64,000 bases of DNA from Candidatus Daviesbacteria bacterium RIFCSPLOWO2_01_FULL_39_23 (GTDB taxonomy: Bacteria > Patescibacteriota > Microgenomatia > Daviesbacterales > UBA10151): NCBI GenBank assembly GCA_001776935.1, contig MFDN01000001.1:101449-165448 (forward strand), read 5' to 3'. The notes beneath the pieces were generated by a model, which saw only the letters and a list, made by a program, of their open reading frames with translations, made no database searches and was not told the origin of the DNA. Of the stretch, positions 1 through 64,000 are shown piece after piece; position 1 is the first letter of the stretch; every line of letters begins with the position of its first letter. The translations under genes were made by a program, and so were the position numbers.

Positions 1-1407
1 GTAAGTTTTTTAGGTGCTTTCATATTTATGTATCTTTTAGTATCTAAACTCTTTGGCAAAATGGGCGGATTAATTTCTGCCCTTTTTTATAGTTTTGCGC
101 CTTATCACGCTCTGGATTTCTACGTTAGGGGAGCAATGGGTGAAATGTGGGCGCTTATGTTATTCCCGGCTGTTTTTTGGGCAATCCTCAAGCTAGAAGA
201 AAAACCCAATTTAACTCACCTCTTGCTGCTTGGAGTATTTAGCGGATTTTTCTTAATTTCTCATAATTTATCGGTAATGATTTTCTTGCCAGTACTTCTG
301 ATTTGGATTATTTTGTTATTCTGGAAACAGAGAAACCTAAAATTCCTTTGGTATACATCTTTTGCATTTTTAATAGGCTTAACATTATCCGCTTTTTATA
401 TTTTGCCAATGATTATTGAGAAGAATTTAGTTCATGTAGATTCCACAACTTCAGGATATTTTTCGTATACAGAGCATTTTAAAGGATTTAAAAAACTATT
501 TTTGGAAAGAACGTGGGGATATGGTGCATCCGTAAGAGAAGTTCCGGGTGGAGAAAGGGACGGATTGTCTTATCAAATAGGGTGGTTGCATCTTTTGGGA
601 TGGCTTATTGCAATAATATCGGCAAAAACTTTATGGAGGAAAAATAAGTGGTTAAGCGTGGTGATTATATCTTTTTCCTTTTTAACCTTATTTGCCATAT
701 TTATGGTTAATCCAAGATCGCAAGCTGTTTGGGATGCAATTGAGCCGTTAAAATACTTACAATTTCCATGGCGCTTTCTTGTTTTAATAACCTTTTTTAT
801 TCCGTTTATGCTAGGAAGTTTTTCTCTCCTGCATTTTAGAGGTAAAAATTTACTTTTCGGGTCTTTAGTTTTAATGGTAGTTGTTTTGAACTTTTCCTAT
901 TTCAGGCCGGAAAAGTTTATTCAAACTGATGACGAAAAACTTTTAATGGGTGATAATTGGGAAAGACAAATAAAAAGATCAATTTTTGATTTTCTTCCTA
1001 TATTTGCCAAAGAACCCCCGGCAGAACTTGCAGAAAGAAGGTATCAAATTCTAACTGGTGATAGTGATGTTTTTGATTTTACCGAAGGGACAAATTCGAT
1101 TTCTTTTAAGACAGATACCCGCACACATACTATTATTCGTCTTTCCCAATATTATTTCCCAGATTGGAAAATATATGTAGATGGTGTTGAAACTAAGGTG
1201 GAGTACAAAAATAATAGCTTGGGTCTTATGACATTTATTTTGGGAAAAGGGAATCACGAGATTTCTGCAAGGCTTTATGATACTCCTATTAGGTCGTTTG
1301 CGAATTTATTGACTCTTGGAGGCTTTGTGTTTAGTGCAGTACTGTTTTTGAGTTCTTTTAGCAGAGTCCGAAAATGGTTCCGTTATTACAGAGAAAGAAT
1401 GAGTTAA
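1..1407 (+). CDS. Polytopic membrane protein, 5'-partial (the reading frame is open to the window edge); possibly a GT-C/YfhO-like glycosyltransferase
   Basis: Long ORF with many hydrophobic helices followed by a C-terminal soluble region. No stop codon lies between position 1 and the first ATG at 28. The family is not recognisable with confidence. Confidence 0.5.
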   Translation, partial: VSFLGAFIFMYLLVSKLFGKMGGLISALFYSFAPYHALDFYVRGAMGEMWALMLFPAVFWAILKLEEKPNLTHLLLLGVFSGFFLISHNLSVMIFLPVLLIWIILLFWKQRNLKFLWYTSFAFLIGLTLSAFYILPMIIEKNLVHVDSTTSGYFSYTEHFKGFKKLFLERTWGYGASVREVPGGERDGLSYQIGWLHLLGWLIAIISAKTLWRKNKWLSVVIISFSFLTLFAIFMVNPRSQAVWDAIEPLKYLQFPWRFLVLITFFIPFMLGSFSLLHFRGKNLLFGSLVLMVVVLNFSYFRPEKFIQTDDEKLLMGDNWERQIKRSIFDFLPIFAKEPPAELAERRYQILTGDSDVFDFTEGTNSISFKTDTRTHTIIRLSQYYFPDWKIYVDGVETKVEYKNNSLGLMTFILGKGNHEISARLYDTPIRSFANLLTLGGFVFSAVLFLSSFSRVRKWFRYYRERMS

Positions 1408-1413
1408 GTAAAT

Positions 1414-2892
1414 ATGAATGAAAGAGTTGAGCCAATAGATCCAACCCAGGAGTTTACTGCAGATGTTATAAAAAAAAGAGCAGTCAAAGGTGCAGCAATA
1501 TTAACAGGAAGAAATGTTTTAATTCAGGTTGTCTCTTTTTTTTCTACAGCCTTATTGACTATTTTTCTTGCTCCTTCCGAATTTGGTGTGTTTTTTTTGG
1601 TCTCAGCTGTAAAAAACTTTTTGGCTTATTTTAGCGATATCGGTTTTGCAGCAGCATTAATTCAAAAAAGAGAGAAATTAGAAGCTGTAGAGTTAAAAAC
1701 AGTCTTTACAGTGCAACAGGCGTTAATTGTTTTGTTGCTTATTGTGGTTTTTATATCTACGCCTTTAATTAAAAATATTTATAATTTAGATCAGAAAGCA
1801 GTTTATTTGCTTTGGGCACTTACTTTTTCTTTGCTTTTCTCCTCGCTTAAAACCATCCCCTCAGTTTTGATGGAAAGAAAATTGGAGTTTAATAAATGGG
1901 TAATTCCTCAAATTATTGAGACAATTGTTTTTAATTTGACGGCGGTTTATTTGGCTTGGAGAGGATTTGGTATAACAAGTTACACTGTCGCGGTATTGTT
2001 ATCCGGGCTTTTGGGACTTGTGATAACTTATATTGTGCAACCCTGGTTTCCCAGATTTGCATTTTCTCTTAAAGCTTTTAAATCGGTATTGAAATTTGGT
2101 GTTCCCTATCAGGTTAATACTCTTCTTGCGATGATAAAAGATGATGGTATGACTCTGTTTTTGGGGGTAATAATCGGTCCGCAAGGAGTGGGGCTTTTGG
2201 GGTGGGCGCAAAAGTGGGCATATGCACCATTACGGTTTTTTATGGATCAGGTGATAAAAGTTACATTCCCTGCATTTTCCAGGCTGCAGGATGATAAGGC
2301 TGCTTTGTCGGATTTAGTGACAAAATCGATATTTTTTGTATGCCTTCTAGTTTTTCCCGCTTTAGTTATACTTGTATTAGTGGCGCCGATTTTAGTGCAG
2401 ATTATTCCCAAATATATTAAATGGAGTCCTGCCCTGTTTGCGCTTTCTATTTTGGCGCTTACTTCTGCTCTTGCAGCTATTACTACACCTTTAACTAACA
2501 CTCTAAATGCAATAGGCAAGATATATTTAACTTTTAAGCTAATGATTATGTGGACTTTTCTTACCTGGGCTTTTGTCCCTCTTTTTGCTTATTTTTTTGG
2601 TTTAAATGGAGCCGCAATTGGATTTACCCTTGTGGGGTTAAGTTCTTTTGTTGCATTGCGTTTGGTTTCTAAACATGTTGATATAAACTACAAAAGAAGC
2701 GTTGGAAAGCCGTTGCTTGCCTCAATCGTAATGGGGGTTTTGGTATTCCTGACAGGAGGGTTGTTGCCAGCATCATTTCAACAAGTAATTATAATGATTG
2801 TCTTAGGTTTTGTCATTTATCTTTTCACAATTTTTGCCCTTGAACCAAATCTAAAAACCTTAATTATCAATCAAATGAAAAAAAGACAATGA
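1414..2892 (+). CDS. Wzx-like oligosaccharide/polysaccharide flippase (MOP superfamily polysaccharide biosynthesis protein)
   Basis: 492 aa with about 12-14 predicted TM helices and an N-terminal basic stretch before TM1, which is the typical Wzx/PST architecture. It sits 6 nt after the previous gene. Confidence 0.6.
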   Translation: MNERVEPIDPTQEFTADVIKKRAVKGAAILTGRNVLIQVVSFFSTALLTIFLAPSEFGVFFLVSAVKNFLAYFSDIGFAAALIQKREKLEAVELKTVFTVQQALIVLLLIVVFISTPLIKNIYNLDQKAVYLLWALTFSLLFSSLKTIPSVLMERKLEFNKWVIPQIIETIVFNLTAVYLAWRGFGITSYTVAVLLSGLLGLVITYIVQPWFPRFAFSLKAFKSVLKFGVPYQVNTLLAMIKDDGMTLFLGVIIGPQGVGLLGWAQKWAYAPLRFFMDQVIKVTFPAFSRLQDDKAALSDLVTKSIFFVCLLVFPALVILVLVAPILVQIIPKYIKWSPALFALSILALTSALAAITTPLTNTLNAIGKIYLTFKLMIMWTFLTWAFVPLFAYFFGLNGAAIGFTLVGLSSFVALRLVSKHVDINYKRSVGKPLLASIVMGVLVFLTGGLLPASFQQVIIMIVLGFVIYLFTIFALEPNLKTLIINQMKKRQ

Positions 2893-5800
2893 AAAAAATA
2901 CTCTTGCTCTTTTTGCTATTACTGGTGCCTATTCTTTTTGTTCCTTCTGCTTTCGCTCAAAATAAATCATTTATCTCAATAATAAATCCCATAAGAGGTC
3001 AGGATTTTTGGGATATAAAAGAGCAAAAACCAGAGACGGCAGTAGCAGGGCAAATTACCATTTTGAATAATTTCAATTTAGTAGCTACCTGGCTACTGCG
3101 GTTTGATGCTCTTGATGATAAAAATATTATTAATATTTTAAACGAAAGGCCGAAGGATGAGAAAGGGTTGTTTTTAGAAATTACTCCAACCTGGACAACG
3201 CAGGCTAAAATCGAATACCGGAAATCCGACAGCTGGCATGCAGCTGGAAGTGCTTTTTTAACAGGTTACGAGCTAAATGAGCGGAAAAAACTGATAGATG
3301 CAGCTTTTGAGAAATTTGAAAATACCTTTGGATATTATCCATCTTCAGTTGGAGCTTGGTGGATAGACAGCTATTCTTTAAGTTATATGCAGGAAAAGTA
3401 TGCAGTATCCTCGGCGTTGATTGTTTCTGATCAATACTCAACAGACAATTATCAAATTTGGGGACAATATTTTTCAACACCATACTATCCTGCCAAAAAT
3501 AATGCTCTTCACCCTGCGAAAAGTTTAGAGAATAAACTTGATGTTGTAATGGTGCAGTGGGCACAGAGAGACCCTGTAAACAGCTATGGCAATGGAGTAA
3601 CAGAAAGCACGTATAGCGTGCAGGCAAATGATTATATGGACTATCACAGTCTAGGTGTAGATTACTTTTCAAAACTTATTGATATTTATACAAAACAAAA
3701 GTTTAATCGGTTTAACCATTTGGTAGTAGGCCTTGAAAACTCCTATGAATGGAATAAATATTTGGGAGAATATAAGAACCAAATTGAGGTTTTGAGGAAG
3801 AAGAGTGATTCTGGTCAGTTAGCTGTAGTTTCCATGAAAGATTTTGCCTCTTGGTATAAATCAGCTTTTCGGGAACTTTCTCCAAAGCAGTTAATTGTGG
3901 CAGATGATCCCCTAGGCTCTTTTAAGAAAGTTGTTTGGTTTATGAATCCATATTATCGAGCTGGATGGTTTTATAATACTGATGGAAGTGTGTTTAGGGA
4001 TATCAGGCAATATATAGAAGGAGAAGAAGAAATTTGTTTCAAAAAAAGCTGCAAAGAAGTTAATTTTGCAACTTTTGCTACACGAGTTTTAGATGAGGTA
4101 AGTTTTGGACATAAATGGATAATAGATGAGGGTAAAATTTCTGAATTTGAAGTTTCTGAAAAAGATGATAGTTTCGTCCTAAGCTATGTAAATGAGGCAG
4201 GGAAGGATAGAGAAATTGAATTTTTGCCCCGAGATTTGCGTGTAAACGGGAAGGTTTCTTCAATAGATGGGGCGATTCTTGACGCTATAAAACAGGATAC
4301 CTTAATTTCAAAAGAGAAAAAAGAATTTCCCGATAAAGAATTTAATTGGACTATTAGTGGTGTTTTATCTAAGACAATTAGATTTTTATTATTTTTAATA
4401 TTTATTTGTGTGGTACCGGGGTTTGTCGTAACTAATAAGTTATTGGAGAAAAATGATTCTACTTTGCGCAGGATATTTTTAGCCTTGACGGTTGGCGGTG
4501 TTTTATTGACTATAATTTTTTATATAACAAGTCTTTTGAATTTGAGATTTTTGATCTTTGTCTATATTTTTACCGCTTTATTGCTCTTTTTTAGGATGCA
4601 AAGGTCTAGTTTTTCTAAAATTAAATTAGGGAAAAATTGGGATAAATTAAATATAATAACAATGCTTATTGTTATATCTGGGTCGCTTTTTCAAAATATC
4701 CCCAGTTTTAAAAACGGTTTAGTATTCTCGTTTGGAATGGGGCTTTGGGGACCTAATACACACGATGGAATCTGGCATATAAGTTTAATTAATCAGTTGC
4801 TTCGGGGAATACCTGTTGAAAATCCTATCTATGCCGGTACCATTCTAAAAAATTATCACTTTTTCTATGACTTGTTGATTGCAGCGACAGCTTATTTTAC
4901 TAAAATTCCCATTATAGATTTAGTTTTTAGATTTTATCCTGTACTTTTTTCTTTGTTTTTAGGCATAGGTTCTTATCACCTGGTGATGAAGCTTTTCTTG
5001 GGCAGGATGGGAGTTGTAAAGACAAAAGTTGCCGCAATATTAAGTTTATTTTTCATCTACTTTGCAGGAAGCTTTGGATGGATTGCAGAATATTTGCGGG
5101 GAAAAACTTTTGGTGGTGAATCTGCATTTTGGGCTAATCAATCAATTTCATTTAATTTAAATCCGCCTTTTGCAATCTCACTAATTATTATTATTGCCTT
5201 TTTAAACCTTTTGTTAAACAGAAAAACAATGGGAAGCCGGATGGGAATTTTTGTATCAACACTATTATTAGGAAGCTTAGTGGGATTTAAAGCGTATGCT
5301 GCTGTTTTGGCAATATCTTCACTACTTTTTATATCTCTTATAAATATATTTAAGAAGGAATATTCATATCTTTTGATTTCCGCATTTTCGTTATTTTTTT
5401 CTTTTTTTGTGTTTCTGTTTAATTTTCAATCTAATGCGCAACTTATGATTTTTTCTCCGTTTTGGTTGATTCATTCGATGATTGATTCACCGGATCGGGT
5501 AGGATGGACTAAGCTGTCAATTGCAAGAATAGCTGGTTTAGAAACGAAAAATTGGTTTAAATTTCTCTCTGTGGAAGCTATAAGTCTATTAATATTTATT
5601 GCCGGGAACTTAGGCGTAAGGATTTTAAGTCTGGGGTCACTAGTAAAAATAAAAGATATAGTTAAAGATAATAATCTTCTGTTTATTTTAGTATTTACGA
5701 TTTTATCTTTTTTGATACCGATATTTTTTATCCAATCAGGAAACCCCTGGAATGTAATCCAATTTTCTTATTACGGTCTTTATGTAACGGCTCTTGCTAC

Positions 5801-6341
5801 TGGTCCGATTTTAGCTTATTTAATTTTTAGGTTGCCTAAATTATTATCTTTTTTAATAATACTTGGGGTCTTGGTATTAACACCAATTAATTCAGTTACT
5901 ACTGCTACCTACTATTTAGGATTTTTACCTCATGGCAGAATCGATAACAAAGAATTAGAAGCCTTGAATTTTCTATTTAAGCAGGAATACGGGACTGTGT
6001 TGACTTATCCTTATGATAGGAGATTACAGCAAAAAATATCGGAACCTTGGCCTCTGTTTGCCTATGATAGTACTGCTTATGTAGCAGCTTTATCAGGCAA
6101 AGCAGTTTTTTTGGAAGATGAAGGGCAAAATCAGATTCTTTTAACTGATTATAAAAGAAGGCTTATTGCTGCTAAAGATTTTTTTCAAAGCAATTTTCTT
6201 GATGGGAATACGTTCTTGGAGAATAATAAAATTAAATATATTTATATTCCAAAAGCTTTCAAGATTCGCATGGAAGGTTCGTCATTAAGTGTTAAAAATA
6301 TTTTTGAAAATGATGAGGTGATAATTTACAGTGTAATCTAA
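2889..6341 (+). CDS. Large envelope protein of unassigned 'family B': signal peptide, an extracytoplasmic domain of about 480 aa, a polytopic membrane domain and a conserved C-terminal tail
   Basis: 1150 aa. The N-terminus MKKILLLFLLLLVPILFVPSAFA is a signal peptide. The membrane domain carries GxWGPNTHDGIWHISLINQL...AGTILKNYHFFYDLL, shared with the next two genes. A 4-nt ATGA overlap links it to the flippase gene. Confidence 0.6.
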   Translation: MKKILLLFLLLLVPILFVPSAFAQNKSFISIINPIRGQDFWDIKEQKPETAVAGQITILNNFNLVATWLLRFDALDDKNIINILNERPKDEKGLFLEITPTWTTQAKIEYRKSDSWHAAGSAFLTGYELNERKKLIDAAFEKFENTFGYYPSSVGAWWIDSYSLSYMQEKYAVSSALIVSDQYSTDNYQIWGQYFSTPYYPAKNNALHPAKSLENKLDVVMVQWAQRDPVNSYGNGVTESTYSVQANDYMDYHSLGVDYFSKLIDIYTKQKFNRFNHLVVGLENSYEWNKYLGEYKNQIEVLRKKSDSGQLAVVSMKDFASWYKSAFRELSPKQLIVADDPLGSFKKVVWFMNPYYRAGWFYNTDGSVFRDIRQYIEGEEEICFKKSCKEVNFATFATRVLDEVSFGHKWIIDEGKISEFEVSEKDDSFVLSYVNEAGKDREIEFLPRDLRVNGKVSSIDGAILDAIKQDTLISKEKKEFPDKEFNWTISGVLSKTIRFLLFLIFICVVPGFVVTNKLLEKNDSTLRRIFLALTVGGVLLTIIFYITSLLNLRFLIFVYIFTALLLFFRMQRSSFSKIKLGKNWDKLNIITMLIVISGSLFQNIPSFKNGLVFSFGMGLWGPNTHDGIWHISLINQLLRGIPVENPIYAGTILKNYHFFYDLLIAATAYFTKIPIIDLVFRFYPVLFSLFLGIGSYHLVMKLFLGRMGVVKTKVAAILSLFFIYFAGSFGWIAEYLRGKTFGGESAFWANQSISFNLNPPFAISLIIIIAFLNLLLNRKTMGSRMGIFVSTLLLGSLVGFKAYAAVLAISSLLFISLINIFKKEYSYLLISAFSLFFSFFVFLFNFQSNAQLMIFSPFWLIHSMIDSPDRVGWTKLSIARIAGLETKNWFKFLSVEAISLLIFIAGNLGVRILSLGSLVKIKDIVKDNNLLFILVFTILSFLIPIFFIQSGNPWNVIQFSYYGLYVTALATGPILAYLIFRLPKLLSFLIILGVLVLTPINSVTTATYYLGFLPHGRIDNKELEALNFLFKQEYGTVLTYPYDRRLQQKISEPWPLFAYDSTAYVAALSGKAVFLEDEGQNQILLTDYKRRLIAAKDFFQSNFLDGNTFLENNKIKYIYIPKAFKIRMEGSSLSVKNIFENDEVIIYSVI

Positions 6342-8347
6342 TGTTAGCCATTCTTTTTCTAAATCTTTTTATATTTATTTTTTTAGTATTTTTAACTATT
6401 TTCCTGCCCGGTTTGCTATTTTTGTCAAAGGTATATAGAAAAATAAATAAAGTTGAAATTATTTCACTCTCTTTTTGTTTAGGAATTGTTTTATTTGTAG
6501 GTTTAGGAATTATTTTGGGGTTTATTCATTTAAGATTTTTATTATTGCCTACCCTATTAATATTGGGGTTTTTATCCATAATAAAATTTAGGAAATTTGC
6601 CTTTTCTGTGTGGACAAGCTTTAGGACAGATAAGCTTTTGCTTTTGATTATCTTGGCCGGTATTTTAATGCAGGGATTCATTAGCTTCCCGAGCGGGTAT
6701 CATTATAAGGAAGGGTTGCTATTTTGGAGTTCTCAGGGGTTTGATGGTTTTTGGCATATTTCTATAATGGAGGAAATAAAAAAAGAATTTCCGCCCCAGA
6801 TTCCTACTTTTGCAGGAGAGAAATTGGTAAACTATCATTTTCTTTCCGATATTTTGATGGGAGAATTTGCTAGGATTTTTTCTTTTTTTTCATCATTGGA
6901 TTTATATTTTAGGTTTTTCCCGGTGTTATTTTCCTTCCTGATGGGTATTAGTGTGTTTGCTTTTGTCCAGAAATGGCAAAATAGAAAGATCGCTTACTGG
7001 GCGCTAATTTTTACCTATTTTACAGGCAGTTTCGGATATGTTATTACCTTTCTAAGAAACGGACAATTATTTGGGGGCGAAACCGTTTTTTGGGCTGCCC
7101 AACTAAATACAGTGATTGCGAATCCGCCGCACGCAGTTGCCATTAGTCTTTTGCTTTCTTTTTTATTATCTCTCTTGCTTTTTTTTGAGGAAAGAAAAAA
7201 AATTTGGTTTTTTATTACAATTGTTTGCGCCTTAATGATTGCTGGTTTTAAGGTGTCTGCGGGTGTAGTTCTTTTGGCAGGTTTAGGTGCCGCTGCTTTG
7301 GTTGATCTTATTGTGAACCGAAAGCTGGATTTATTCTATTTACTTATTACTCTTGGGGTATCAAATTTTGCCGTTATAAAATTTATGACTAAAGGAGTGG
7401 GGGAATATTTAATTTGGGAACCTTGGTGGTTTATTAGAACAATGGTGGTAGCCAAATTGGATTGGATGGATTTGGAGTTAAGGAGGCAGCACTATGCATC
7501 AAAGGGAACGTGGCATTCCTGGCTTAGGGTTTTACAGATAGAAATAATGGCTTTTTCCATATTTTTGGTTGGGAATCTAGGAATGAGAGTAATTGGATTT
7601 ATAGAAATATTTAAAAAAATATTATTAAAAAAACAATGGCTTTATAATAAACCTTTTGAAGCAGGCATTTTGGCGATGATGCTCACTGGCTTTATAATCC
7701 CACTATTTTTTCTGCAAAAGGGGATTGCGTACAATACCGTTCAGTTTATGCAATATTTTTTGCTGTTTTTTGGTTTTTACGGCGCTATTGCAACGGAGAA
7801 AATAAGTGAGCAAATAAAAAATAAGCTGTTTAGGTTCCTCTTTGTAATACTTGTGATTATTCTTTCTGTACCGACAGTGATTGGCAATCTTGTAGAATTT
7901 TACGGACCGGGGAAAACACCTTTGGCAAAGATTTCAAATGAAGAGATGGAGGCATTGCAATTCTTAAGGACTCATTCGGAGGAAGATGACATAATCCTGA
8001 ACCCATCTTTTGATAAATCCTTAAAGGATAGATACAATTCCCAGCCTTTTCCTATATATGCCTGGTACAGTACCGGGTACATCTCCGGTCTTACAGGACG
8101 AAGGACGTATCTTTCATTAGAAGAAATGGTGATCCAGACAGGATTTGATTATGAAGGACGAGTTTTAAAAGTAAATAGTTTTTTTGAAAAAAATGATACT
8201 TTAGCCAATAGAAAATTGCTTAAGGAAGAAGGGATTAGTTTTGTGTATATTCCGAAGGATCAATTAAAGGCGCAACTGGATTTAAAACAAAATTACCTGG
8301 ATCTTATTTTTGAAAACTCAGAAGTAATAATTTACAAAGTAATTTAA
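6341..8347 (+). CDS. Polytopic membrane protein, 'family B' paralog 2 (putative GT-C-like glycosyltransferase or polymerase)
   Basis: 668 aa. It contains SQGFDGFWHISIMEEIKKEFPPQIPTFAGEKLVNYHF, WEPWWFIRTM, and a C-terminal YIPK...NSEVIIYKVI tail shared with paralogs 1 and 3. A TAATG overlap links it to the upstream gene. Confidence 0.6.
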   Translation: MLAILFLNLFIFIFLVFLTIFLPGLLFLSKVYRKINKVEIISLSFCLGIVLFVGLGIILGFIHLRFLLLPTLLILGFLSIIKFRKFAFSVWTSFRTDKLLLLIILAGILMQGFISFPSGYHYKEGLLFWSSQGFDGFWHISIMEEIKKEFPPQIPTFAGEKLVNYHFLSDILMGEFARIFSFFSSLDLYFRFFPVLFSFLMGISVFAFVQKWQNRKIAYWALIFTYFTGSFGYVITFLRNGQLFGGETVFWAAQLNTVIANPPHAVAISLLLSFLLSLLLFFEERKKIWFFITIVCALMIAGFKVSAGVVLLAGLGAAALVDLIVNRKLDLFYLLITLGVSNFAVIKFMTKGVGEYLIWEPWWFIRTMVVAKLDWMDLELRRQHYASKGTWHSWLRVLQIEIMAFSIFLVGNLGMRVIGFIEIFKKILLKKQWLYNKPFEAGILAMMLTGFIIPLFFLQKGIAYNTVQFMQYFLLFFGFYGAIATEKISEQIKNKLFRFLFVILVIILSVPTVIGNLVEFYGPGKTPLAKISNEEMEALQFLRTHSEEDDIILNPSFDKSLKDRYNSQPFPIYAWYSTGYISGLTGRRTYLSLEEMVIQTGFDYEGRVLKVNSFFEKNDTLANRKLLKEEGISFVYIPKDQLKAQLDLKQNYLDLIFENSEVIIYKVI

Positions 8348-15036: not shown

Positions 15037-15052
15037 TAAGATAGGATTATTC

Positions 15053-35575: not shown

Positions 35576-36529
<954 letters not shown>

Positions 36530-43718: not shown

Positions 43719-43731
43719 AGTGTTTTTTGTA

Positions 43732-45541: not shown

Positions 45542-45577
45542 ATTAGTATTATACTCAACTTTATGGTATTGCTTTAC

Positions 45578-46858: not shown

Positions 46859-46892
46859 AGGTTTATTTTATTGTATATTATGTCATTTTAAA

Positions 46893-47930: not shown

Positions 47931-47957
47931 ATAAATAAAAGATTGTTTAGAAAACTG

Positions 47958-49330: not shown

Positions 49331-49336
49331 AATAAT

Positions 49337-53129: not shown

Positions 53130-53133
53130 AATT

Positions 53134-54105: not shown

Positions 54106-54111
54106 AACGAC

Positions 54112-54139: not shown

Positions 54140-54147
54140 GATTACAC

Positions 54148-54175: not shown

Positions 54176-54192
54176 AAAATTTAAATCTTAAG

Positions 54193-56624: not shown

Positions 56625-56633
56625 GTGATGGGT

Positions 56634-56661
56634 TTACAATTATTGAGTATCATTGTATACT
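56634..56661 (+). promoter_or_regulatory. Candidate internal promoter upstream of the DegT-family gene
   Basis: TTACAA-N16-TATACT ends 10 nt before the ATG at 56672. Confidence 0.3.
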
Positions 56662-56671
56662 TTTTCCCAAT

Positions 56672-57895
56672 ATGAAGAGTTCCGCTTCCGACAAAAAAGA
56701 CTCATTAAGACTTACTACCGCCATAGCGTTACATGGCAAAGAGGAGGAAGAAAGAGTGCTTAAAGTATTAAGAGAACACAGAACAATAATGGGTCGGGAG
56801 ATTGAGGAATTCGAGAGAAGGCTTGCAAAGATCTTTGAAAAAGAATACGGCATTATGGTAAATTCCGGATCTTCTGCAAACCTTCTGGCTATAGAACTTT
56901 TAAATCTTCCGCCTGGGACTGAAGTCATTACCCCTATTTTGACTTTTTCTACAACAGTTGCCCCCCTTATTCAAAAGGGACTGGTTCCTGTCTTTGTTGA
57001 TGTGCTGGACGGGAAGTATGTTATAGATGCAGATAAGGTGGAAGCTGCAATTAGTAAAAAAACAAAAGCATTAATGGTCCCTATCCTAATGGGGAATGTT
57101 CCGAATCTGGAAAAATTACAAAAAATAGCTAAGAAACACAACCTTTATTATATAGATGATTCCTGTGATGCAATTACGTCACTTTATAAAGGAAAATCCT
57201 CAGGGGCTTACTCCGACATTTCGACAACAAGTGTATATGGTTCACATGTCATTACTGCAGGCGGTAATGGAGGTGTGGTGATGGTAAACAAGGAAGAATT
57301 GAGGGATAAGGCTAAGGTTTTAAGGGGGTGGGGGAGAAGTTCAGCGATTTTCTCTGAATCGGAAAAAATTGAATACCGTTTCTCCAGCAAAATTGGCAAT
57401 ATTCCTTATGATGGAAAATATATTTTCGAAGAAATAGGATATAATTTTCTCCCCATGGAACTAGGAGCTGCATTTGGCAATGCCCAGCTTGATAAGCTCA
57501 AATTGTTTATAAAAATAAGAGAAAGAAATGCAAAGATATTAAGTAAATTGTTTGGTCAGTATCCTGATTTATTTATTGTGCCGATAGAAGACGAACAGGC
57601 AAGACCGCAGCGCCAGGTTTTTCCTGTAACGATTAAAAAAGGCGCTCCGTTTACCAGACTTGAATTGGTGACTTTCTTGGAAAAAGAAAATGTGCAGACA
57701 AGACCAATCTTTACAGGCAATATCTTAAAACAGCCCGGATTTAAAAATATTACCCACCGCGATACCCAAAAGGATTACGAGGTGACAGATAATATTATGG
57801 AACGCGGATTCATTATAGGAGTTCATCAGGGATTAACTTTAGATCATTTAGACAAGTTGAGTAATTTGCTTCATAAATTCATCAAGCAATTTTAA
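56672..57895 (+). CDS. DegT/DnrJ/EryC1/StrS-family PLP-dependent sugar aminotransferase (or E1-type 3-dehydratase)
   Basis: 407 aa with family-typical length and composition. Context: an FdtA-like ketoisomerase and a CDP-4-keto-6-deoxyhexose pathway are nearby. Confidence 0.55.
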   Translation: MKSSASDKKDSLRLTTAIALHGKEEEERVLKVLREHRTIMGREIEEFERRLAKIFEKEYGIMVNSGSSANLLAIELLNLPPGTEVITPILTFSTTVAPLIQKGLVPVFVDVLDGKYVIDADKVEAAISKKTKALMVPILMGNVPNLEKLQKIAKKHNLYYIDDSCDAITSLYKGKSSGAYSDISTTSVYGSHVITAGGNGGVVMVNKEELRDKAKVLRGWGRSSAIFSESEKIEYRFSSKIGNIPYDGKYIFEEIGYNFLPMELGAAFGNAQLDKLKLFIKIRERNAKILSKLFGQYPDLFIVPIEDEQARPQRQVFPVTIKKGAPFTRLELVTFLEKENVQTRPIFTGNILKQPGFKNITHRDTQKDYEVTDNIMERGFIIGVHQGLTLDHLDKLSNLLHKFIKQF

Positions 57896-59967
57896 TCTTG
57901 ACAGGAGATATTTATTTGTGTTGTTTTGGTTCTGTTTAGTAAGCTGCAGAGATTTGTATAAAAAACTTTAGAGCTGTTATTTTGTAATACTTCATTTATT
58001 ATTTTTTCAGCTTCCAAGAAATGTTTATTAAAGATTAACCCTTCTATGAAAGGTAGCCATTCGTTCGGATCCTTTGGCTGAAGATTATTTTCTGTTACCT
58101 CTTTTGTTAGCTGAGTTAGTTTACTCCAGTCCTGTAACTGTCTTGCAAGAGACGCCTTTTGAAAAAAATAACACCAATTATGGGAGGGTTCACGTCCAAA
58201 AATAACAGACGGTGGAGAAGTTTTGTTGTCCTTTTGGAGTAATTTATCAGCATCAGAATATTTGATGTTATTTATCAATAATTCATCTGAGCTGTCTGGA
58301 AATTCCAGCCGATTGCCATCCAAAATCCATAAACAGGACTGGTCATTGGGGGTAGAAATTATTACAGTATTTTTGAAATCTTTTACGTAGGTGATATTTC
58401 GGTCTTTAATGGAGTCAACAGCCTGATTCTTTATCTTCTCCGGTATGCCTATGTCCTGTAAAAAGTCGCCTCTAAAATGTTTTTGGGGTGAATCTTCGTA
58501 ATTAAAGAATAAGTTTCCCGGTGCCCATATTTGATAATCTACCCAATAAATTCTATGCCATTTAGTCTTATTGATAAGATTTTTAAATAAGCTTTGATTT
58601 ATATTGTCCGGAAAATAAAATATCAGCATAGCTTCATCTCTTATTTTGGGAGAACGCCAGTATAGCTGCCACCAAATATTTTTTTGTTTATCCCAATTTA
58701 AAGAAAAAAGGAAGCTATTGGTAATATGGGTTGTGACAGATAATGCTACGAGGGATATTATAATTACCTTTCGCAAAGGGGATGAGATTTTATATAATAA
58801 GAACCCTATTAAGAAAAAAGATGCTCCAGCTATGCTGGTAATAGTATAGCGGTCAAAAGCATAAAACAATCTGACGTAACGTCCTGAAATAATTATTGGT
58901 ATAAGTGCTCCTGTTACAGTGATTAATCCAATAATTAGAAGCTGTTTGCCCAACATCTTTACAGACAGGGAGTTATCAAGGTTTTGGTCTTTTTTCCATT
59001 TATCAGCCGTCTTAAAATAAAGATAAAGCAATAAGGCAGCAATAGCACCTAATGATAAAGCAATAACAGATGCATTCAAAGGTATGCGGGGGATTCTTAT
59101 AAGAATCGGGAGAAAATACGAGAGTGCTATGGTTGAAAATCCACTGTAGAGTACTTCCAGGGGTATTTTGGCAATCCATAAAGGATTTGAGTAATATGTT
59201 TGCATTACCCAATTAATATCTGTTTCCGGACGGATGCTTTTAAATATGAGAATACGCCATAATAAAAATATCCCCATGCTGGTGACATAAGGACTCCAAT
59301 ATTTCCAGTATGACAATATTTTTCTGAATGTATTAAGAGAAAGAAAGTTAAAGTTAACTTTTAGAACATACATTATCAGTAATATTCTGAGGATTTCTGT
59401 GCCTATGAAAAATTCCAGTAAGAAAAAGACACTGATTTGTAGTATTAGTGCGAAAAAAGTAAAAAGAAAAGCCTTAAGTTTTTTGTTTGCCTTTATGGCG
59501 AGTATGGTGAAAAATACAGAATAAGTCCACACTGTTAAAGTGAGTATCCATATACCAAACCCAAGTGGAAGTGGTTGTTCTAAGAAACCAGGATAAATTA
59601 GGAATAGTAATGTAATTGAAGTTATAACTGATAATTTGTCCGGCCAGAGTTTTTTAAGCAGATAGAACAAAGCATATCCTCCAAATAATCTGACAATAAA
59701 CATACAAATATGCCAGAGTAATACGTTATCCCCCAGTAATTGATATAAAAAAGCAAGCAAATATCCATGTGCCGGTCTGTCGATTATCAAACTTTCTATT
59801 AAGCCTTGTGAGCCATAGAAATGGGCGACATAACCAAAGAAGAAGTCATCGCTGTAAAAACCCAAATATGGGATAAGAGGAAAATAAGCCAAAAGACTCA
59901 AAACGGTAATTAATAACAACGAAATAGTTGTTGGATTTACGTGCCTTAAGGATTTTAGATTGGTCAT
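57892..59967 (-). CDS. Polytopic membrane protein with a C-terminal soluble domain, GT-C-like candidate
   Basis: 691 aa. The N-terminal loop YSDDFFFGY (acidic pair) lies between TM helices. It shares a TTAA stop with the convergent DegT gene. Confidence 0.45.
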   Translation of the reverse strand: MTNLKSLRHVNPTTISLLLITVLSLLAYFPLIPYLGFYSDDFFFGYVAHFYGSQGLIESLIIDRPAHGYLLAFLYQLLGDNVLLWHICMFIVRLFGGYALFYLLKKLWPDKLSVITSITLLFLIYPGFLEQPLPLGFGIWILTLTVWTYSVFFTILAIKANKKLKAFLFTFFALILQISVFFLLEFFIGTEILRILLIMYVLKVNFNFLSLNTFRKILSYWKYWSPYVTSMGIFLLWRILIFKSIRPETDINWVMQTYYSNPLWIAKIPLEVLYSGFSTIALSYFLPILIRIPRIPLNASVIALSLGAIAALLLYLYFKTADKWKKDQNLDNSLSVKMLGKQLLIIGLITVTGALIPIIISGRYVRLFYAFDRYTITSIAGASFFLIGFLLYKISSPLRKVIIISLVALSVTTHITNSFLFSLNWDKQKNIWWQLYWRSPKIRDEAMLIFYFPDNINQSLFKNLINKTKWHRIYWVDYQIWAPGNLFFNYEDSPQKHFRGDFLQDIGIPEKIKNQAVDSIKDRNITYVKDFKNTVIISTPNDQSCLWILDGNRLEFPDSSDELLINNIKYSDADKLLQKDNKTSPPSVIFGREPSHNWCYFFQKASLARQLQDWSKLTQLTKEVTENNLQPKDPNEWLPFIEGLIFNKHFLEAEKIINEVLQNNSSKVFYTNLCSLLNRTKTTQINISCQD

Positions 59968-59979
59968 TTCTTAATGATA

Positions 59980-60819
59980 TCAAATAATTTTGTTACTTTT
60001 TTTGTGTTTTAACAGACGGATATAGTCAGTAAGTTCTGTTAAAGCTGTTTTTCTTTGCTGGTTCCTCTTTTCTATAAATTTTGCCTTCGCTCCGCCTTCT
60101 TCTGTATTTTCATTTTGTTTTTGAGTGGGTGGATACGCAAATGGTATTTCTATGGTGAGAATCCTTAATCCAAAAGAAAGAGCTTTTACCAGGGGGAATG
60201 TTTGTGCCTCTGAATATTCTTCAAATAGAGAAGTAATAAGCTGATCATTTCGTAGAGCCACAGGACCAAAGGCTATATCCAGTATCTGGTTTGGAGGTAA
60301 TAATCCTGTCTTATGAAGCAGGTGATTGTATTTTTTGTTCCAAATTTTTTCTGAATCATACATATAACCGGGATAGCTTTGACGAAAATGGTTATCCTCC
60401 CTGTTAGGAACAACTATATCTGCTTCTCCGTTGATAATTGGTAACGCGATAGTTTGGGCAAACATTTCGACAATACTGATTTTTTCCGGCTCTGTCCGGA
60501 TAATCACTTTTACTCCATCCAGCTTTGCGGCTTTTTGGATAGCCAATTTTCTTCCCATGGCTCGCTGGGGGTTGTTTCTTGAAACGACGAGAACTTTAAG
60601 CTCTGATAGTTCCTGTTTAAATGCTTCTGAACTTGCGCCGTCAGCAATTACCAGTTGATAGCCCGCCATTTTTACTATTCGTACTAACTCTAAAGCAAGA
60701 TCTCCGCGAACCTTATCTGTGTCCCCGATATTTTCGAGAGGCCCGGGATACCAGTTAGGGTAAAGAGTAGTTGCTGCAATTGCTATTAATTCTGGATTTA
60801 CTCTAAGTACGGAATTCAT
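59980..60819 (-). CDS. Hypothetical soluble protein
   Basis: 279 aa with no recognisable motifs. It sits between the membrane GT and the GtrB-like gene. Confidence 0.4.
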   Translation of the reverse strand: MNSVLRVNPELIAIAATTLYPNWYPGPLENIGDTDKVRGDLALELVRIVKMAGYQLVIADGASSEAFKQELSELKVLVVSRNNPQRAMGRKLAIQKAAKLDGVKVIIRTEPEKISIVEMFAQTIALPIINGEADIVVPNREDNHFRQSYPGYMYDSEKIWNKKYNHLLHKTGLLPPNQILDIAFGPVALRNDQLITSLFEEYSEAQTFPLVKALSFGLRILTIEIPFAYPPTQKQNENTEEGGAKAKFIEKRNQQRKTALTELTDYIRLLKHKKSNKII

Positions 60820-60842
60820 AAGTAATGGCTGTAATGGAATGA

Positions 60843-61811
60843 TTAATGTCTATCTGGTAGAAGCGTATTGTTCAAATTCCGGCGCGATACAATTTCCTCT
60901 ACCAGATATACCGGGCGTGCTTTTGTTTCTTCCACTATTACTTGTATATATTTTCCAATAACGCTTAAAGCTAAAAGTTGAATTCCGCCAAAAAGAACAA
61001 TGGAGAATATTATCAACATTGATTCTCTTATGGTCTGTCCGAATAAATAGAATAAGAACAAATATACAATTATGCAAATGAATGAGAAAATGACTATAAT
61101 AAGGCCCAAATATACAATAATATCTAAAGGTAAATACGAAAATCCAAAAAAACTTCTTTCTGAATGATGAATATATCTAAATATGTTATAAGAGGTTTTT
61201 CCGTATTGTCTTTTCCGGCGCTGGTAGATGATAAACGTTGTTTTAAAACCAACCCATGCTCTTAAGCCTCTATAGAATCTGTATTTTTCAGGTAATTTCC
61301 TCATGGCATCCATAACGTTTTTATCGAGTAATGCAAAGCTGCCTGTATCAACGGGAACATCAATGTTTGAGATAGCCCTTAAAATTCTATAATAAGCTTT
61401 TCTTATAAATGTCATAACAAGGGTATCCTCAATCTTATTTCTTGTGCCGACAACAACCTTAAAACCTTTTTCCCACTCTCTAATAAATGTAGAAATAATT
61501 TCCGGAGGGTCCTGCATATCGCATTCATATAAAACAAACGCATCGCCGGTTGCATAATCCAGTGATGCCTGCGAAGAAGATTCTGGACCAAAGTTTCTGG
61601 AAAGAAAAATACCGGATACTCTTTTGTCTTTTGCTACTTTTTTAATTTCCTTTTTTGTCGCGTCAGTGCTGCCGTTATCTACAAATATAAATTCGAAATT
61701 GTATTTTTTTTCACTATCAGCCAGCTTTGCCAATTCCTGATAAGCAAGAGGAACATTAAGCTCTTCGTTAAAACAAATTATTCCAATGGAGACTGTTTTT
61801 TTATTAGTCAT
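60843..61811 (-). CDS. Polyprenyl-phosphate sugar synthase (GtrB/ArnC/DPM-like GT2 with C-terminal TM helices)
   Basis: VSIGIICFNEELNV...FIFVDNGSTDAT, two C-terminal hydrophobic helices, and a start at MTNKK that forms an ATGACTAA overlap with the upstream gene. Confidence 0.6.
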   Translation of the reverse strand: MTNKKTVSIGIICFNEELNVPLAYQELAKLADSEKKYNFEFIFVDNGSTDATKKEIKKVAKDKRVSGIFLSRNFGPESSSQASLDYATGDAFVLYECDMQDPPEIISTFIREWEKGFKVVVGTRNKIEDTLVMTFIRKAYYRILRAISNIDVPVDTGSFALLDKNVMDAMRKLPEKYRFYRGLRAWVGFKTTFIIYQRRKRQYGKTSYNIFRYIHHSERSFFGFSYLPLDIIVYLGLIIVIFSFICIIVYLFLFYLFGQTIRESMLIIFSIVLFGGIQLLALSVIGKYIQVIVEETKARPVYLVEEIVSRRNLNNTLLPDRH

Positions 61812-62742
61812 AATAGCAAGAATTCTCTTTAAACCAGTTAACCGTCTCCTCAATACCCTGACTTAAATTCTTTTTAGGATACCATTTAAGTTTTTGTTTT
61901 GTTTTTTGAATGTTGGCTTGCCACATAAACTTTTGGGGGTTTTTCAAATCGTCATATATGATTTGGTTTTTAAAGTCCACCTTCTTTGTTAACAATTCTA
62001 ACATATCTTTAACGCATGTTTGTTTGCCACTACCGATATTCAGGATCTCTCCACTTAATTTATCGGGGTTATTTATACATTGAATGAAGGCTTCAATTAC
62101 ATCTTCGATAAAAATATAATCCCGGACCGTGTTTGGGTTTTTAATATGGATTGTTTCTCCTTTTAGCATTTTATGGATAGTTTGAGGGATTAAACGTAAA
62201 GGATGGTCGAAAGGACCATACGGAGAGAAGAGTCTTAATGTAACAAGTGGTTTTTTAGTTTTTACGGCGTAGGATTTGGCATATAAAGTTGTGGCCAGTT
62301 TTGCTAAGGCGTAATTGCTGGTTGGTTCACAGCGGTTGTACTCCTTCATAGGAGTATTCTTATCTCCATATTCAGAGGAACTACCCGTATTGATGAAACA
62401 TTCATAATCAATCGAATCTGTGCTTTCGATAAGATTTACGGTACCGAATAAATTTACTTGCATTGACTTATTCAATGAAGTATCGAGTCCTCCATATAAT
62501 CCTAAATTTGCAAGGTGAATAACTACGTTTGGTTTAATTGTATGAAGCAGTTTTAAAAGACGTTTTCTGTTCAGCAAATCAACTTCATGCGGATGCAGTT
62601 TTGTGAGAATATCTTTAATTCTCCAAATATTTGAGTTTTTCCTTTTTAAAATATGAACTTCATAATTTTCCCTTATAAGTCTTCGGATAAGATTTGTTCC
62701 AACGAAACCTGTTGCGCCTGTTACAAAAATTTTCTTCTTCAT
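61804..62742 (-). CDS. NAD-dependent epimerase/dehydratase (extended SDR)
   Basis: KIFVTGATGFVGTNLIRRL. Paralog of the 48407..49330 product. Confidence 0.6.
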   Translation of the reverse strand: MKKKIFVTGATGFVGTNLIRRLIRENYEVHILKRKNSNIWRIKDILTKLHPHEVDLLNRKRLLKLLHTIKPNVVIHLANLGLYGGLDTSLNKSMQVNLFGTVNLIESTDSIDYECFINTGSSSEYGDKNTPMKEYNRCEPTSNYALAKLATTLYAKSYAVKTKKPLVTLRLFSPYGPFDHPLRLIPQTIHKMLKGETIHIKNPNTVRDYIFIEDVIEAFIQCINNPDKLSGEILNIGSGKQTCVKDMLELLTKKVDFKNQIIYDDLKNPQKFMWQANIQKTKQKLKWYPKKNLSQGIEETVNWFKENSCYYD

Positions 62743-63921
62743 TTATGGGAGGGTTTTGAGTTTCTTGAATGCTTTCTTTATTCTCTCAAGGCCCAATCTT
62801 AAGTTTTGGATGTCTGTTGCGTATGAAATGCGAAGATATCCTTCGCCAAAGCGTCCAAATGCGGTTCCTGCAAGCAAGGCTACGTTGGCTTCTTTCAGCA
62901 GAAAAGAGGCAATCTCCTGGGAAGTTCTGCCGAATGATTTAATATTTGGAAAAGCATAGAAAGCGCCGTGAGGTAAAAGAGTTGTTACTCCCGGCATTGA
63001 ATTTAAAGTCTCAATAACGAAATCACGGCGTTTTTTAAATTCCCCAACCATTTCTTTTACTGATTTTTGCGGTCCTAAAAATGCTTCTAATCCTGCTTCT
63101 TGCGTAAATGTTGCCGTACAGGCAAAGGAATGGGTGAGAAAATATTCTATCTTTTTCATAATTTTTTTAGGTGCAACAAGCCAGCCTAACCGCCATCCTG
63201 TCATGGAATAAGTTTTTGAAAAACCATCAACGATGATTGTTTGTTTACGTATCTTAGGTATGCTGTAAATGCTATGATAAGGTTCCTGAGTATAAAGTAT
63301 GCGGCTGTAAATTTCATCTGTTAAGATCCAGCTTTTAAAGCGACAGGCTAGGTCAGCAATTTCCTCCAGATCTTTTTTTGGAATAAGGGTGCCTGTGGGA
63401 TTTCCCGGATAATTTAAAATGATGAGTTTTGTCTTTTTGGAAATCTTTCTTCTAAAAACATTCATATCAAAGCTGAACTGCTTTTTTTCGGTAAGAGGAA
63501 CAGATACAGCCTTACCGCCGAAAAATTCAACCAGGATTTTGTAGGCAGGGAAAGCAGGGTCAGGATATAGTACTTCGTCGCCCGGCGAAACAATGGAGGC
63601 AAGAGCTGTAAACAATGCAGTTTTGCAACTGGGAGTTACTGCAATTTGCGAAACATCAACTTTTATACCCTTTTGTTTAGTTGTCCAATCTGCTATCGCA
63701 TGTCTTAGCGGCAGAATTCCAAGGGAGGGAGTGTATTTGGTTTTACCGGAGCGGATTGCTTTTATGGCGGCTTCCGTAATGTTTGGAGGAGTTTCAAAAT
63801 CAGGTTGGCCAATTTCAAAATGAATGATGGATTTGCCCTGTCGTTCAAGGTCTACTGCTTCTGCAAGAACCTTAAAGGCGCCTTCAGGTTCCAGTTTTGA
63901 CATTCGGGAAGCAAGTTTCAT
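62743..63921 (-). CDS. Class I/II pyridoxal-phosphate aminotransferase (aspartate aminotransferase family)
   Basis: 392 aa with the typical fold-type I length and composition. It is probably a housekeeping flank of the island. Confidence 0.55.
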   Translation of the reverse strand: MKLASRMSKLEPEGAFKVLAEAVDLERQGKSIIHFEIGQPDFETPPNITEAAIKAIRSGKTKYTPSLGILPLRHAIADWTTKQKGIKVDVSQIAVTPSCKTALFTALASIVSPGDEVLYPDPAFPAYKILVEFFGGKAVSVPLTEKKQFSFDMNVFRRKISKKTKLIILNYPGNPTGTLIPKKDLEEIADLACRFKSWILTDEIYSRILYTQEPYHSIYSIPKIRKQTIIVDGFSKTYSMTGWRLGWLVAPKKIMKKIEYFLTHSFACTATFTQEAGLEAFLGPQKSVKEMVGEFKKRRDFVIETLNSMPGVTTLLPHGAFYAFPNIKSFGRTSQEIASFLLKEANVALLAGTAFGRFGEGYLRISYATDIQNLRLGLERIKKAFKKLKTLP

Positions 63922-64000
63922 GGTTGTTTTAATGGAGCAATAATCATATTTTTGTAAAATTCTTCACGCGGAAGAAGAGGTGAAAGATCTTCAATCGGGT

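Follow-up and report, generated by a model that had tools for sequence, protein, structure and literature searches.

In the N-glycan pathway of the endoplasmic reticulum (ER) a glycan is built on a lipid, flipped, extended by glycosyltransferases of the C fold type (GT-Cs) and then transferred. Mycobacterial arabinogalactan (AG) and lipoarabinomannan (LAM) also begin with a lipid-linked glycan, which is extended outside by GT-Cs using polyprenyl-phosphate-sugars and then transferred (PMC3485146). The streptococcal GtrB/PgtC2 and PgfS/PgfM1 systems are examples of three-component decoration (bioRxiv 10.1101/2024.05.05.592596). Here we analyse a stretch of 64,000 nucleotides (the window) from Candidatus Daviesbacteria bacterium RIFCSPLOWO2_01_FULL_39_23 (contig MFDN01000001.1, positions 101,449 to 165,448), a member of the Microgenomates within the Candidate Phyla Radiation (CPR, or Patescibacteria), in which 17 GT-C-type candidates occupy 29.9 kb, or 47% of the sequence. 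The window probably forms the middle of an island that assembles a cell-surface glycan in the manner proposed below. The cell envelope serves CPR bacteria as the interface of their episymbiotic way of life, and it has hardly been characterised.

Results

GT-C candidates in the window

Coding sequence makes up 99% of the window, at a GC content of ~34%; neither a tRNA gene nor an Rfam family was detected. All 53 genes defined in the window were scanned against Pfam and most against NCBIfam; paralogues were grouped by BLAST among the window proteins, which reproduced the groups of an earlier reading of the sequence (the original prediction). That reading saw one locus encoding an elaborate glycosylation system, and nearly every item on its list is confirmed. 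Its estimate of about 16 GT-C candidates becomes 17 with the addition of a short relative of family A: the set comprises seven family A proteins, g07, the pair g12/g18, g23, three family B proteins, g01, g31 and g47 (Table 1). Pfam gathering scores (PMT_2, PMT, Mannosyl_trans2, PTPS_related/YfhO) are passed by g06, g08, g12, g13, g14, g16, g18, g19, g20, g23 and full-length g01. In the first loop after the first transmembrane segment (TM1) there is an acidic motif: DE in family A, g12 and g18, DD in g47 and family C, and D135 in family B.

The seven members of family A (g06, g08, g13, g14, g16, g19 and g20), predicted as PMT/ArnT-like paralogues, are 25–38% identical to each other by BLAST. 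Each scores at or above the gathering threshold of PMT_2, PMT or both, and in all of them TM1 is directly followed by an invariant motif, PPSLxxDExSxGYxAYSI, that includes the DE. A profile of the seven matches ArnT (5ezm) at 4.5e-8, and proteins of this type carry the UniRef label 'RgtA/B/C/D-like domain'. The short protein g07 lacks both the DE motif after TM1 and the C-terminal domain of family A. Its orthologues (33–51% identity) adjoin a g08-like gene in at least nine species, and in most cases their other neighbour is a family A gene as well; g07 may be a non-catalytic partner.

The remaining named-family candidates also correspond to proteins that had been singled out beforehand: the two ArnT-like proteins with D(E/H)PPL are the PMT_2 proteins g12 and g18, the PIG-V-like protein is g23, and the three other large polytopic proteins are g01, g31 and g47. 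The window start truncates g01, leaving its N-terminal 115 aa upstream; the full gene encodes 574 aa (locus record L003, 8270–9994) and scores above the gathering thresholds for PMT_2 (29.3) and PTPS_related (27.0). It is the fourth of four tandem family C paralogues, which are 28–39% identical and all have DD after TM1. UniRef names g31 'RgtA/B/C/D-like domain'; as a relative of family A it was rejected (profile comparison not significant, 5.7%), and its GT-C status derives from a sub-threshold PMT_2 match.

Co-located synthases resembling PpgS, AglJ and PgfS suggest that the GT-Cs would use polyprenyl-phosphate-linked sugar donors on the extracytoplasmic face of the membrane. 'Extracytoplasmic' is preferred here to 'periplasmic' because bacteria of the Daviesbacteria type are thought to be monoderm.

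Family B and g47

Family B consists of the C-terminal half of g03 together with g04 and g05 (32–42% identical by BLAST; g03 is 32–33% identical to the other two), the same three paralogues that were originally recognised. Family B and g47 have no sequence match in Pfam, NCBIfam or the PDB, and g47 gives no YfhO match. Sequence comparison did not connect family B with family A or with a family in Pfam (hhalign probability 3.8%; none of 41 diverse members matches PMT_2 or STT3).

The AlphaFold (AF2) model of g04 has a pLDDT of 88.3 and a pTM of 0.90, and its top 25 Foldseek matches are exclusively GT-C enzymes. STT3/AglB/PglB and DPY19 lead (E 3e-8 to 3e-6; TM-score 0.39–0.50), with ALG12, ArnT and AftA next. 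Transporters rank lower than these GT-Cs, at a probability of no more than 0.2, and isolated AglB C-terminal globular domains match weakly. The confident models of family B and g47 match only GT-Cs (oligosaccharyltransferases (OSTs) of the STT3/PglB/AglB type, DPY19, PMT, ALG, ArnT and Aft): both are thus predicted to have the GT-C fold. Among the 41 diverse members D135 (g04 numbering, first loop of the module) is the sole invariant acidic residue of family B, and Y165 and H166 are also invariant.

More than 559 close family B homologues exist, and all of those with an organism name are from CPR bacteria (Daviesbacteria, Berkelbacteria, Microgenomates, Saccharimonadales); a profile search of 1.84 billion representatives returned 1,693 clusters at E≤1e-3. 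Three architectures occur: a core of ~560 aa, a form of ~660 aa, and a long form of ~1,000–1,160 aa, common among the representatives, whose N-terminal domain is secreted, as it is in g03. In g03 this domain (2889–4373), which contains an invariant Cys pair, precedes the GT-C module; it resembles DUF3863 and the uncharacterised protein PDB 3LM3 only weakly. The g05 product, which has diverged from g04, is 669 aa long in public gene calls.

Integrity of the assembly

The above could be misleading if the polytopic proteins were transporters or unrelated membrane proteins, or if the contig were chimeric. Six of the proteins (g03, g04, g05, g07, g15 and g47) have no Pfam match at E≤0.01, g17 has a sub-threshold match only, and the GT-C assignment of family B and g47 comes from predicted, not solved, structures. 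Against the first possibility, Pfam searches and predicted structures identify the large polytopic proteins as GT-C candidates, and the top Foldseek matches are to GT-Cs only. Against the second, the window is 100% identical to NCBI MFCQ01000013.1 (GCA_001776655.1) and to a 354-kb JGI contig from Rifle groundwater. Contigs assembled independently, from different samples and with different assemblers (JGI 3300025308, JGI 3300025311, NCBI GCA_001776655.1, ENA ERZ909595 and ENA ERZ27254739), match it at 99.99–100% identity and cover 1–18347, 19042–40688, 31143–52981 and 52743–64000. The 694-bp gap between the first two stretches lies inside g12, whose 489-aa product is identical in both flanking loci, and the window ends are exactly 64,000 bases apart on the JGI contig. 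Misassembly is thus excluded, and an artefactual origin of the locus, in either form, is for practical purposes refuted; we consider it extremely improbable.

The same proteins are found in Candidatus Daviesbacteria bacterium GW2011_GWC2_40_12 and in the 2012 'ACD_32' contigs, and cluster look-ups place each in ~30–40 contigs. Their entries, publicly available from 2012 on, label them hypothetical or 'RgtA/B/C/D-like domain' proteins, and full-text literature searches found no paper on GT-C expansion or glycosylation islands in CPR/Patescibacteria: the description of the system as not well described still holds.

Extent and conservation of the island

The island continues past both ends of the window and measures at least 84 kb overall, with at least 22 GT-C candidates in the ~74 kb formed by the window and its upstream flank. 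The 10 kb upstream contain three more tandem family C paralogues (L003, 1–8324), making four with g01, a 515-aa PMT_2 protein with a DE motif, a 731-aa GT2–PMT_2 fusion and a PpgS-like GT2 that is 31% identical to g24; the left boundary of the island lies beyond this flank. In the 10 kb downstream (L005/L006, 1–10000) the island continues with a thiamine pyrophosphate (TPP) enzyme and a gene set for a nonulosonic acid of the legionaminic/pseudaminic type: NeuB, a NeuC-like epimerase, a CMP-sugar synthetase, HisH/HisF-like amidotransferase proteins and a formyltransferase.

For comparison with relatives, 38 loci from species-representative genomes (Daviesbacteria, Woesebacteria and 'Microgenomates group') were collected with the family B alignment as query. 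Nearly all share one core order – [family C ×2–4]–Wzx–B(long)–B–A–(g07–A)–GT2–GT2–GT4–(g12)–A – and GT-C candidates number from 2 to 11 per 22 kb (median 7). In each of the 33 loci with a Wzx gene, that gene adjoins family B. Across species, the orthologues of a given paralogue share 45–74% identity, compared with 25–38% between paralogues: the duplications are therefore old, and the paralogues presumably not redundant. The neighbourhoods of g47 homologues vary in content between species but are always sugar loci. Whether the island is conserved or variable among relatives was a question raised at the outset; the synteny of the core in 38 species, together with the varying g47-homologue neighbourhoods, suggests that the left core is conserved and the right part variable.

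This variability could mean that the island serves surface variation for host attachment or phage evasion, the paralogues being switchable glycoforms. The right half (g26–g51) and the surroundings of g47 homologues do differ between species, and the number of family A genes per related locus varies from 0 to 5. However, paralogues that are 25–38% identical and have clear orthologues elsewhere do not stem from recent expansion; apart from one trivial tandem repeat, a search of the window revealed neither repeats nor invertible elements nor phase-variable tracts; and the proteins are identical across the ~30–40 contigs, which come from many samples. We judge this explanation improbable.

Two observations concern the junction of g02 (Wzx) and g03. 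In the window the two genes overlap by ATGA (2889–2892), and one protein from the profile search of representatives (P0289; 1,639 aa) is a natural fusion of a Wzx (58% identical to g02) with a g03-like protein (46%). It may reflect a genuine Rosetta-stone link; alternatively, a frameshift or an error of gene calling in a single assembly could have produced it. Separately, many of the locus records (L007–L044; for example L023, DATKWK010000035.1) are third-party metagenome-assembled genomes titled 'uncultured Gammaproteobacteria bacterium' despite a Microgenomates-type cluster, and one 394-kb contig with the cluster is titled 'Candidatus Bathyarchaeia archaeon'; either the titles are probably wrong or the contigs mis-binned.

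Flippase, donor synthases and nucleotide sugars

The supporting machinery listed in the original prediction was largely recovered. The Wzx-like flippase is g02; the three polyprenyl-phosphate-sugar synthase-like GT2s are g24, g27 and g49 (best matches PpgS, AglJ/ArnC and PgfS); and the DUF2304 gene lies directly downstream of g24. Seven of the roughly eight other GT2/GT4 proteins were found, five GT2 (g09, g10, g21, g25, g41) and two GT4 (g11, g22). The TagF-like transferase was not: none of the 53 products matches TagF/Glyphos_transf, and for g36, the likely candidate, searches of Pfam, NCBIfam and the PDB gave no match. The alignment of g24 to PpgS, the mycobacterial polyprenyl-phosphate-GalNAc synthase, is full-length at 121.9 bits against an equivalog cutoff of 370; the PgfS and ArnC matches of g49 are also full-length and below the equivalog cutoffs (PgfS 214 bits against 500).

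Several nucleotide-sugar routes – CDP-, UDP- and others – are present, as had been noted. The CDP-hexose branch g34–g40 contains a GFO oxidoreductase, a C-methyltransferase, g36, an RmlC/FdtA-like cupin, a short-chain dehydrogenase/reductase (SDR) of the reductase/epimerase type, a CDP-glucose 4,6-dehydratase-like and a glucose-1-phosphate cytidylyltransferase-like protein; its NCBIfam matches include RfbF (8.8e-79, g40) and CDP_4_6_dhtase (4.5e-62). CDP-hexose enzymes are thus represented by RfbF-like g40, RfbG-like g39 and RfbH-like g46, and C-methyltransferases by g30 and g35, while the UDP branch has the UDP-glucose dehydrogenase g45 and the UXS/ArnA-like SDR g44. The protein closest to dTDP-glucose 4,6-dehydratase is g29 (4.5e-42). 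An Arn pathway making 4-amino-4-deoxy-L-arabinose (Ara4N) was considered for g44–g49 and rejected, since g46 is far closer to RfbH (2.6e-103) than to ArnB (6.5e-26).

Two paralogue pairs were observed among these enzymes: the SDRs g29 (38337–39395) and g44 (54193–55272), with 47% identity, and the C-methyltransferases g30 (39396–40649) and g35 (45578–46858), with 35% identity. Their presence suggests two parallel, distinct routes to branched or deoxy-sugars. RfbF/G/H-like genes, two C-methyltransferases and a TPP enzyme (39396–40649, 45578–46858, 49337–51063 and 56672–57895; TPP enzyme L005, 8223–10004) might together yield branched-chain 3,6-dideoxyhexoses resembling yersiniose.

A proposed pathway

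The following scheme is inferred from these parts: what each enzyme does, how it is oriented in the membrane, in which order the steps occur, what family B contributes and what kind of acceptor (protein or wall polymer) is used. A lipid-linked glycan would be started in the cytoplasm, flipped, extended outside and transferred. Cytoplasmic enzymes would make unusual nucleotide sugars (CDP-6-deoxy/3,6-dideoxy-type and C-methyl-branched hexoses, and UDP-GlcA/pentose), with a nonulosonic acid supplied by the genes just outside the window, and the soluble GT2/GT4 proteins g09–g11, g21, g22, g25 and g41 would assemble an oligosaccharide carried by polyprenyl (pyro)phosphate. At the same time, polyprenyl phosphate would be loaded with single sugars by three to four GT2 synthases (g24 with DUF2304, g27, g49 and one more upstream). 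On the outer face the diverged GT-Cs (families A and C, g12/g18, g23, g31 and g47) would each add one sugar or linkage from lipid-phosphate donors. Family B would use the flipped lipid-linked glycan, either for en-bloc transfer to the final acceptor or for polymerisation; it is placed at this step because of its strict adjacency to Wzx, the fusion protein and the OST-like predicted fold.

The small proteins g15 and g17 may be accessory subunits or flippases for the lipid-phosphate-sugars, the latter being suggested because no GtrA-family protein is present. Their genes are interleaved with those of the family A proteins g14 and g16, with overlapping stops and starts, and a g15 orthologue precedes a g14-like gene in one related locus (L008). 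Profile searches gave no convincing family for either.

The same parts can be read as a set of independent three-component decoration modules, each with a GT2 lipid-phosphate-sugar synthase, a flippase and a GT-C, that add single sugars directly to completed acceptors (surface or S-layer/pilus proteins, in their Ser/Thr-rich regions, or polymers like teichoic acid), with no assembly line; GtrB/CsbB–YfhO, PgfS–PgfM and Ppm1–Pmt are known examples. The PgfS-like g49 adjoins the epimerase g50 and lies near the GT-C g47, an arrangement resembling pgfS–pgfE–pgfM (bioRxiv 10.1101/2024.05.05.592596); family C matches YfhO/PTPS_related, family A matches the PMT protein O-mannosyltransferase model, and loci of g47 homologues vary like serotype-modification regions. 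However, only three to four lipid-phosphate-sugar synthases accompany at least 22 GT-Cs, and the fixed, lineage-wide order of old paralogues with Wzx and GT2/GT4 better fits a defined multi-step product. Moreover, one to three GT-Cs are all that the known systems of this type for protein O-glycosylation require (bioRxiv 10.1101/2024.05.05.592596). Modules of this kind as the full account appear to us somewhat unlikely; an assembly line and decoration modules are, in any case, not mutually exclusive.

Several findings weigh against the assembly-line pathway. Pfam matches to an initiating phosphoglycosyltransferase, Wzy, WaaL, an LCP ligase or a GtrA-type flippase are absent from the window and 10 kb on each side (for the Wzx/Wzy-dependent route, Wzy_C, O-antigen ligase, Bac_transf and Glycos_transf_4 were sought, in the flanks by precomputed Pfam), which leaves gaps in the pathway as read; nor does the locus contain an evident acceptor gene. 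None of the 41 diverse family B members matches Pfam STT3 at E≤0.01; the family has a conserved PWWF only, with no WWDxG motif or its W[WYF]DxG variants, and its Foldseek TM-scores to OSTs (0.42–0.50) are no better than those to ArnT or AftA. Since neither scores nor motifs single out OSTs, the OST-like role is argued mainly from synteny. Finally, activities are deduced from distant homology: the equivalog cutoffs of PpgS, PgfS, RfbF, RfbG and RfbH are not reached.

A bolder version of the assembly-line pathway would make the island a conserved bacterial equivalent, carried by Microgenomates, of the ER-type pathway, in which a glycan is built on lipid, flipped, extended outside by GT-Cs and transferred en bloc, with family B a new class of OST or ligase that attaches a large, rare-sugar-rich glycan to S-layer/pilus proteins or to the wall, the glycan being the main envelope polymer of these ultrasmall episymbionts. 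We offer this as speculation that would more probably prove wrong than right.

Table 1. Genes of the 64-kb window, with positions, strands and supporting matches.
Gene	Description	Position	Strand	Support
g01	Family C GT-C (YfhO/PTPS_related/PMT_2-like)	1..1407	+	In-window part PMT_2 23.6 bits
g02	Wzx-type flippase for lipid-linked oligosaccharide (multidrug/oligosaccharidyl-lipid/polysaccharide (MOP) type)	1414..2892	+	Polysacc_synt_3 1.8e-52
g03	Long family B protein: signal anchor, ~470-aa secreted domain, predicted GT-C module at residues ~596–1149	2889..6341	+	
g04	Family B GT-C, OST/DPY19-like predicted fold	6341..8347	+	No Pfam match
g05	Family B GT-C (predicted fold), start uncertain (669–699 aa)	8344..10443	-	42% identical to g04
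g06	Family A GT-C (PMT_2/PMT)	10510..12255	+	PMT_2 34.5 bits, PMT 27.7 bits; DE motif
g07	Short family-A-like polytopic protein, 404 aa	12188..13402	+	hhalign to family A 95.6%, E 1e-8
g08	Family A GT-C	13399..15036	+	PMT 40.3 bits, PMT_2 40.1 bits
g09	Cytoplasmic GT2, conserved core	15053..15952	+	Glycos_transf_2 3.7e-19; syntenic in most of 38 loci
g10	Cytoplasmic GT2, conserved core	15955..16758	+	Glycos_transf_2 8e-18
g11	Cytoplasmic GT4, conserved core	16779..17852	+	Glycos_transf_1 3.6e-25
g12	PMT_2 GT-C, DE and DEPPL motifs, 489 aa	17849..19318	+	PMT_2 45.7 bits
g13	Family A GT-C	19332..20984	+	PMT_2 45.9 bits, PMT 36.6 bits; ArnT 5ezm 6.5e-4 (single sequence)
g14	Family A GT-C	21033..22679	-	PMT 27.0 bits, PMT_2 26.5 bits
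g15	Small 6-TM protein	22660..23373	-	No family match; weak hhalign (50%) to family A C-terminal TM region
g16	Family A GT-C	23366..25027	-	PMT_2 47.0 bits, PMT 31.1 bits
g17	Small 8-TM protein	24985..25806	-	Sub-threshold TgpA_N match only
g18	PMT_2 GT-C, DE and DHPPL motifs	25833..27389	-	PMT_2 30.9 bits
g19	Family A GT-C	27421..29064	+	PMT_2 46.5 bits, PMT 29.6 bits
g20	Family A GT-C	29042..30688	+	PMT_2 47.3 bits
g21	GT2	30705..31493	+	Glycos_transf_2 2.7e-20
g22	GT4	31402..32547	+	Glycos_transf_1 1e-25
g23	PIG-V-like (GT76-type) GT-C	32550..33728	+	Mannosyl_trans2 50.9 bits (cutoff 22.4), 2e-13
g24	PpgS-like polyprenyl-phosphate-sugar synthase (GT2)	33725..34396	+	Best NCBIfam match PpgS 2.6e-35
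g24b	DUF2304 small membrane protein, partner of g24	34404..34736	+	DUF2304 1.4e-16
g25	GT2	34742..35575	+	Glycos_transf_2 3.9e-29
g26	NAD-dependent sugar epimerase/dehydratase	35585..36529	+	Epimerase 6e-56
g27	AglJ/ArnC/DPM1-like polyprenyl-phosphate-sugar synthase (GT2)	36530..37264	+	AglJ 3e-28, ArnC 1e-19 (NCBIfam)
g28–g30b	GFO oxidoreductase, 4,6-dehydratase/UXS-like SDR, sugar C-methyltransferase, FdtA-like cupin	37247..41052	-	Pfam
g31	Probable GT-C, ~8 TM segments	41143..42981	+	PMT_2 24.2 bits (cutoff 26.1), E 4e-5
g32, g33	S-adenosylmethionine (SAM) methyltransferase (g32); DUF5672 protein (g33)	43011..44532	+ (g32), - (g33)	
g34–g40	CDP-hexose branch	44525..51063	-	Pfam
g41	GT2 (TIGR04440 type)	51125..52162	-	TIGR04440 6.7e-70
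g42, g43	GFO/IDH/MocA-like oxidoreductases	52155..54105	-	
g44–g46	UXS/ArnA-decarboxylase-like SDR (g44), UDP-glucose 6-dehydrogenase (g45), RfbH-like pyridoxal phosphate (PLP) enzyme (g46)	54193..57895	+	
g47	GT-C (predicted fold) of unnamed family, DD motif, C-terminal helical-repeat domain	57892..59967	-	
g48	Soluble protein	59980..60819	-	Very weak AglJ match, E 0.05
g49	PgfS/ArnC/GtrB-type synthase, 2 C-terminal TM segments	60843..61853	-	PgfS 2.2e-63, ArnC 1.1e-33
g50, g51	Sugar epimerase (g50), class I/II aminotransferase (g51)	61804..63921	-	

Discussion

The enzymes of the island belong to a known superfamily and the logic of the pathway is known. What is new is the density of the cluster together with its lineage-wide conservation, two GT-C families absent from curated libraries, and the link between Wzx and family B. 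CPR genomes are typically ~1 Mb; at that size, several per cent of the genome would be spent on one glycan island. That the core is conserved in Daviesbacteria, Woesebacteria and further Microgenomates implies a surface glycan that is important and defines the lineage. Testable candidates are family B and the g47 family (both outside Pfam and NCBIfam), the Wzx–family B link and the PpgS–DUF2304 pair; they could serve biochemistry in heterologous hosts, targeted glycomics or metaproteomics, and better annotation of thousands of 'hypothetical' CPR membrane proteins.

The mycobacterial and corynebacterial AG and lipomannan (LM)/LAM pathways likewise employ many GT-Cs outside the membrane, with polyprenyl-phosphate-sugar donors made by GT2 enzymes. 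Mycobacterial GT-C genes are, however, spread over a 4.4-Mb genome, whereas here at least 22 are gathered in one CPR island of ~74 kb, which has no Emb/Aft/Mpt Pfam matches, apparently involves other sugars, and contains no mycolate or arabinan genes. The small mycobacterial membrane protein Rv3632 we take to be a member of DUF2304. The PpgS-like g24, followed by a small membrane protein as Rv3631 (PpgS) is by Rv3632 and with GT-Cs nearby, resembles the PpgS–Rv3632–Rv3779 module (PMC3485146), although g24 scores below the PpgS equivalog cutoff.

Likeness to the Gram-positive three-component systems (GtrB/CsbB with GtcA and YfhO; PgfS–PgfM1–PgfE–PgfM2 of S. mutans) lies in g49, with its two C-terminal TM segments and adjacent epimerase, and in family C, whose members are GT-Cs of the YfhO/PTPS_related type with a DD motif predicted to be extracytoplasmic. 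The island differs in having no GtrA/GtcA flippase, in that g47 is not of the YfhO family, and in a scale some ten times larger. Family A, by its profile match and UniRef label, resembles ArnT and the RgtA–D enzymes of Rhizobium (GT83), and g44–g46 superficially resemble Ugd, the ArnA decarboxylase and ArnB of the ArnT system; to our knowledge, CPR bacteria lack lipopolysaccharide.

The N-glycan pathway (ALG GT4/GT2 enzymes, RFT1, DPM1/ALG5, ALG3/9/12/6/8/10 and STT3/AglB) has the same set of part types as the island: GT2/GT4 proteins, a MOP flippase, GT2s like dolichyl-phosphate-sugar synthases, a series of GT-Cs and a predicted fold like that of STT3/AglB/PglB. In contrast to that pathway, the island shows no sequence relation to STT3 or ALG proteins, no WWDxG and no sign of protein N-glycosylation. 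The analogy, as far as the predicted parts carry it, is one of pathway logic and not of pathway homology.

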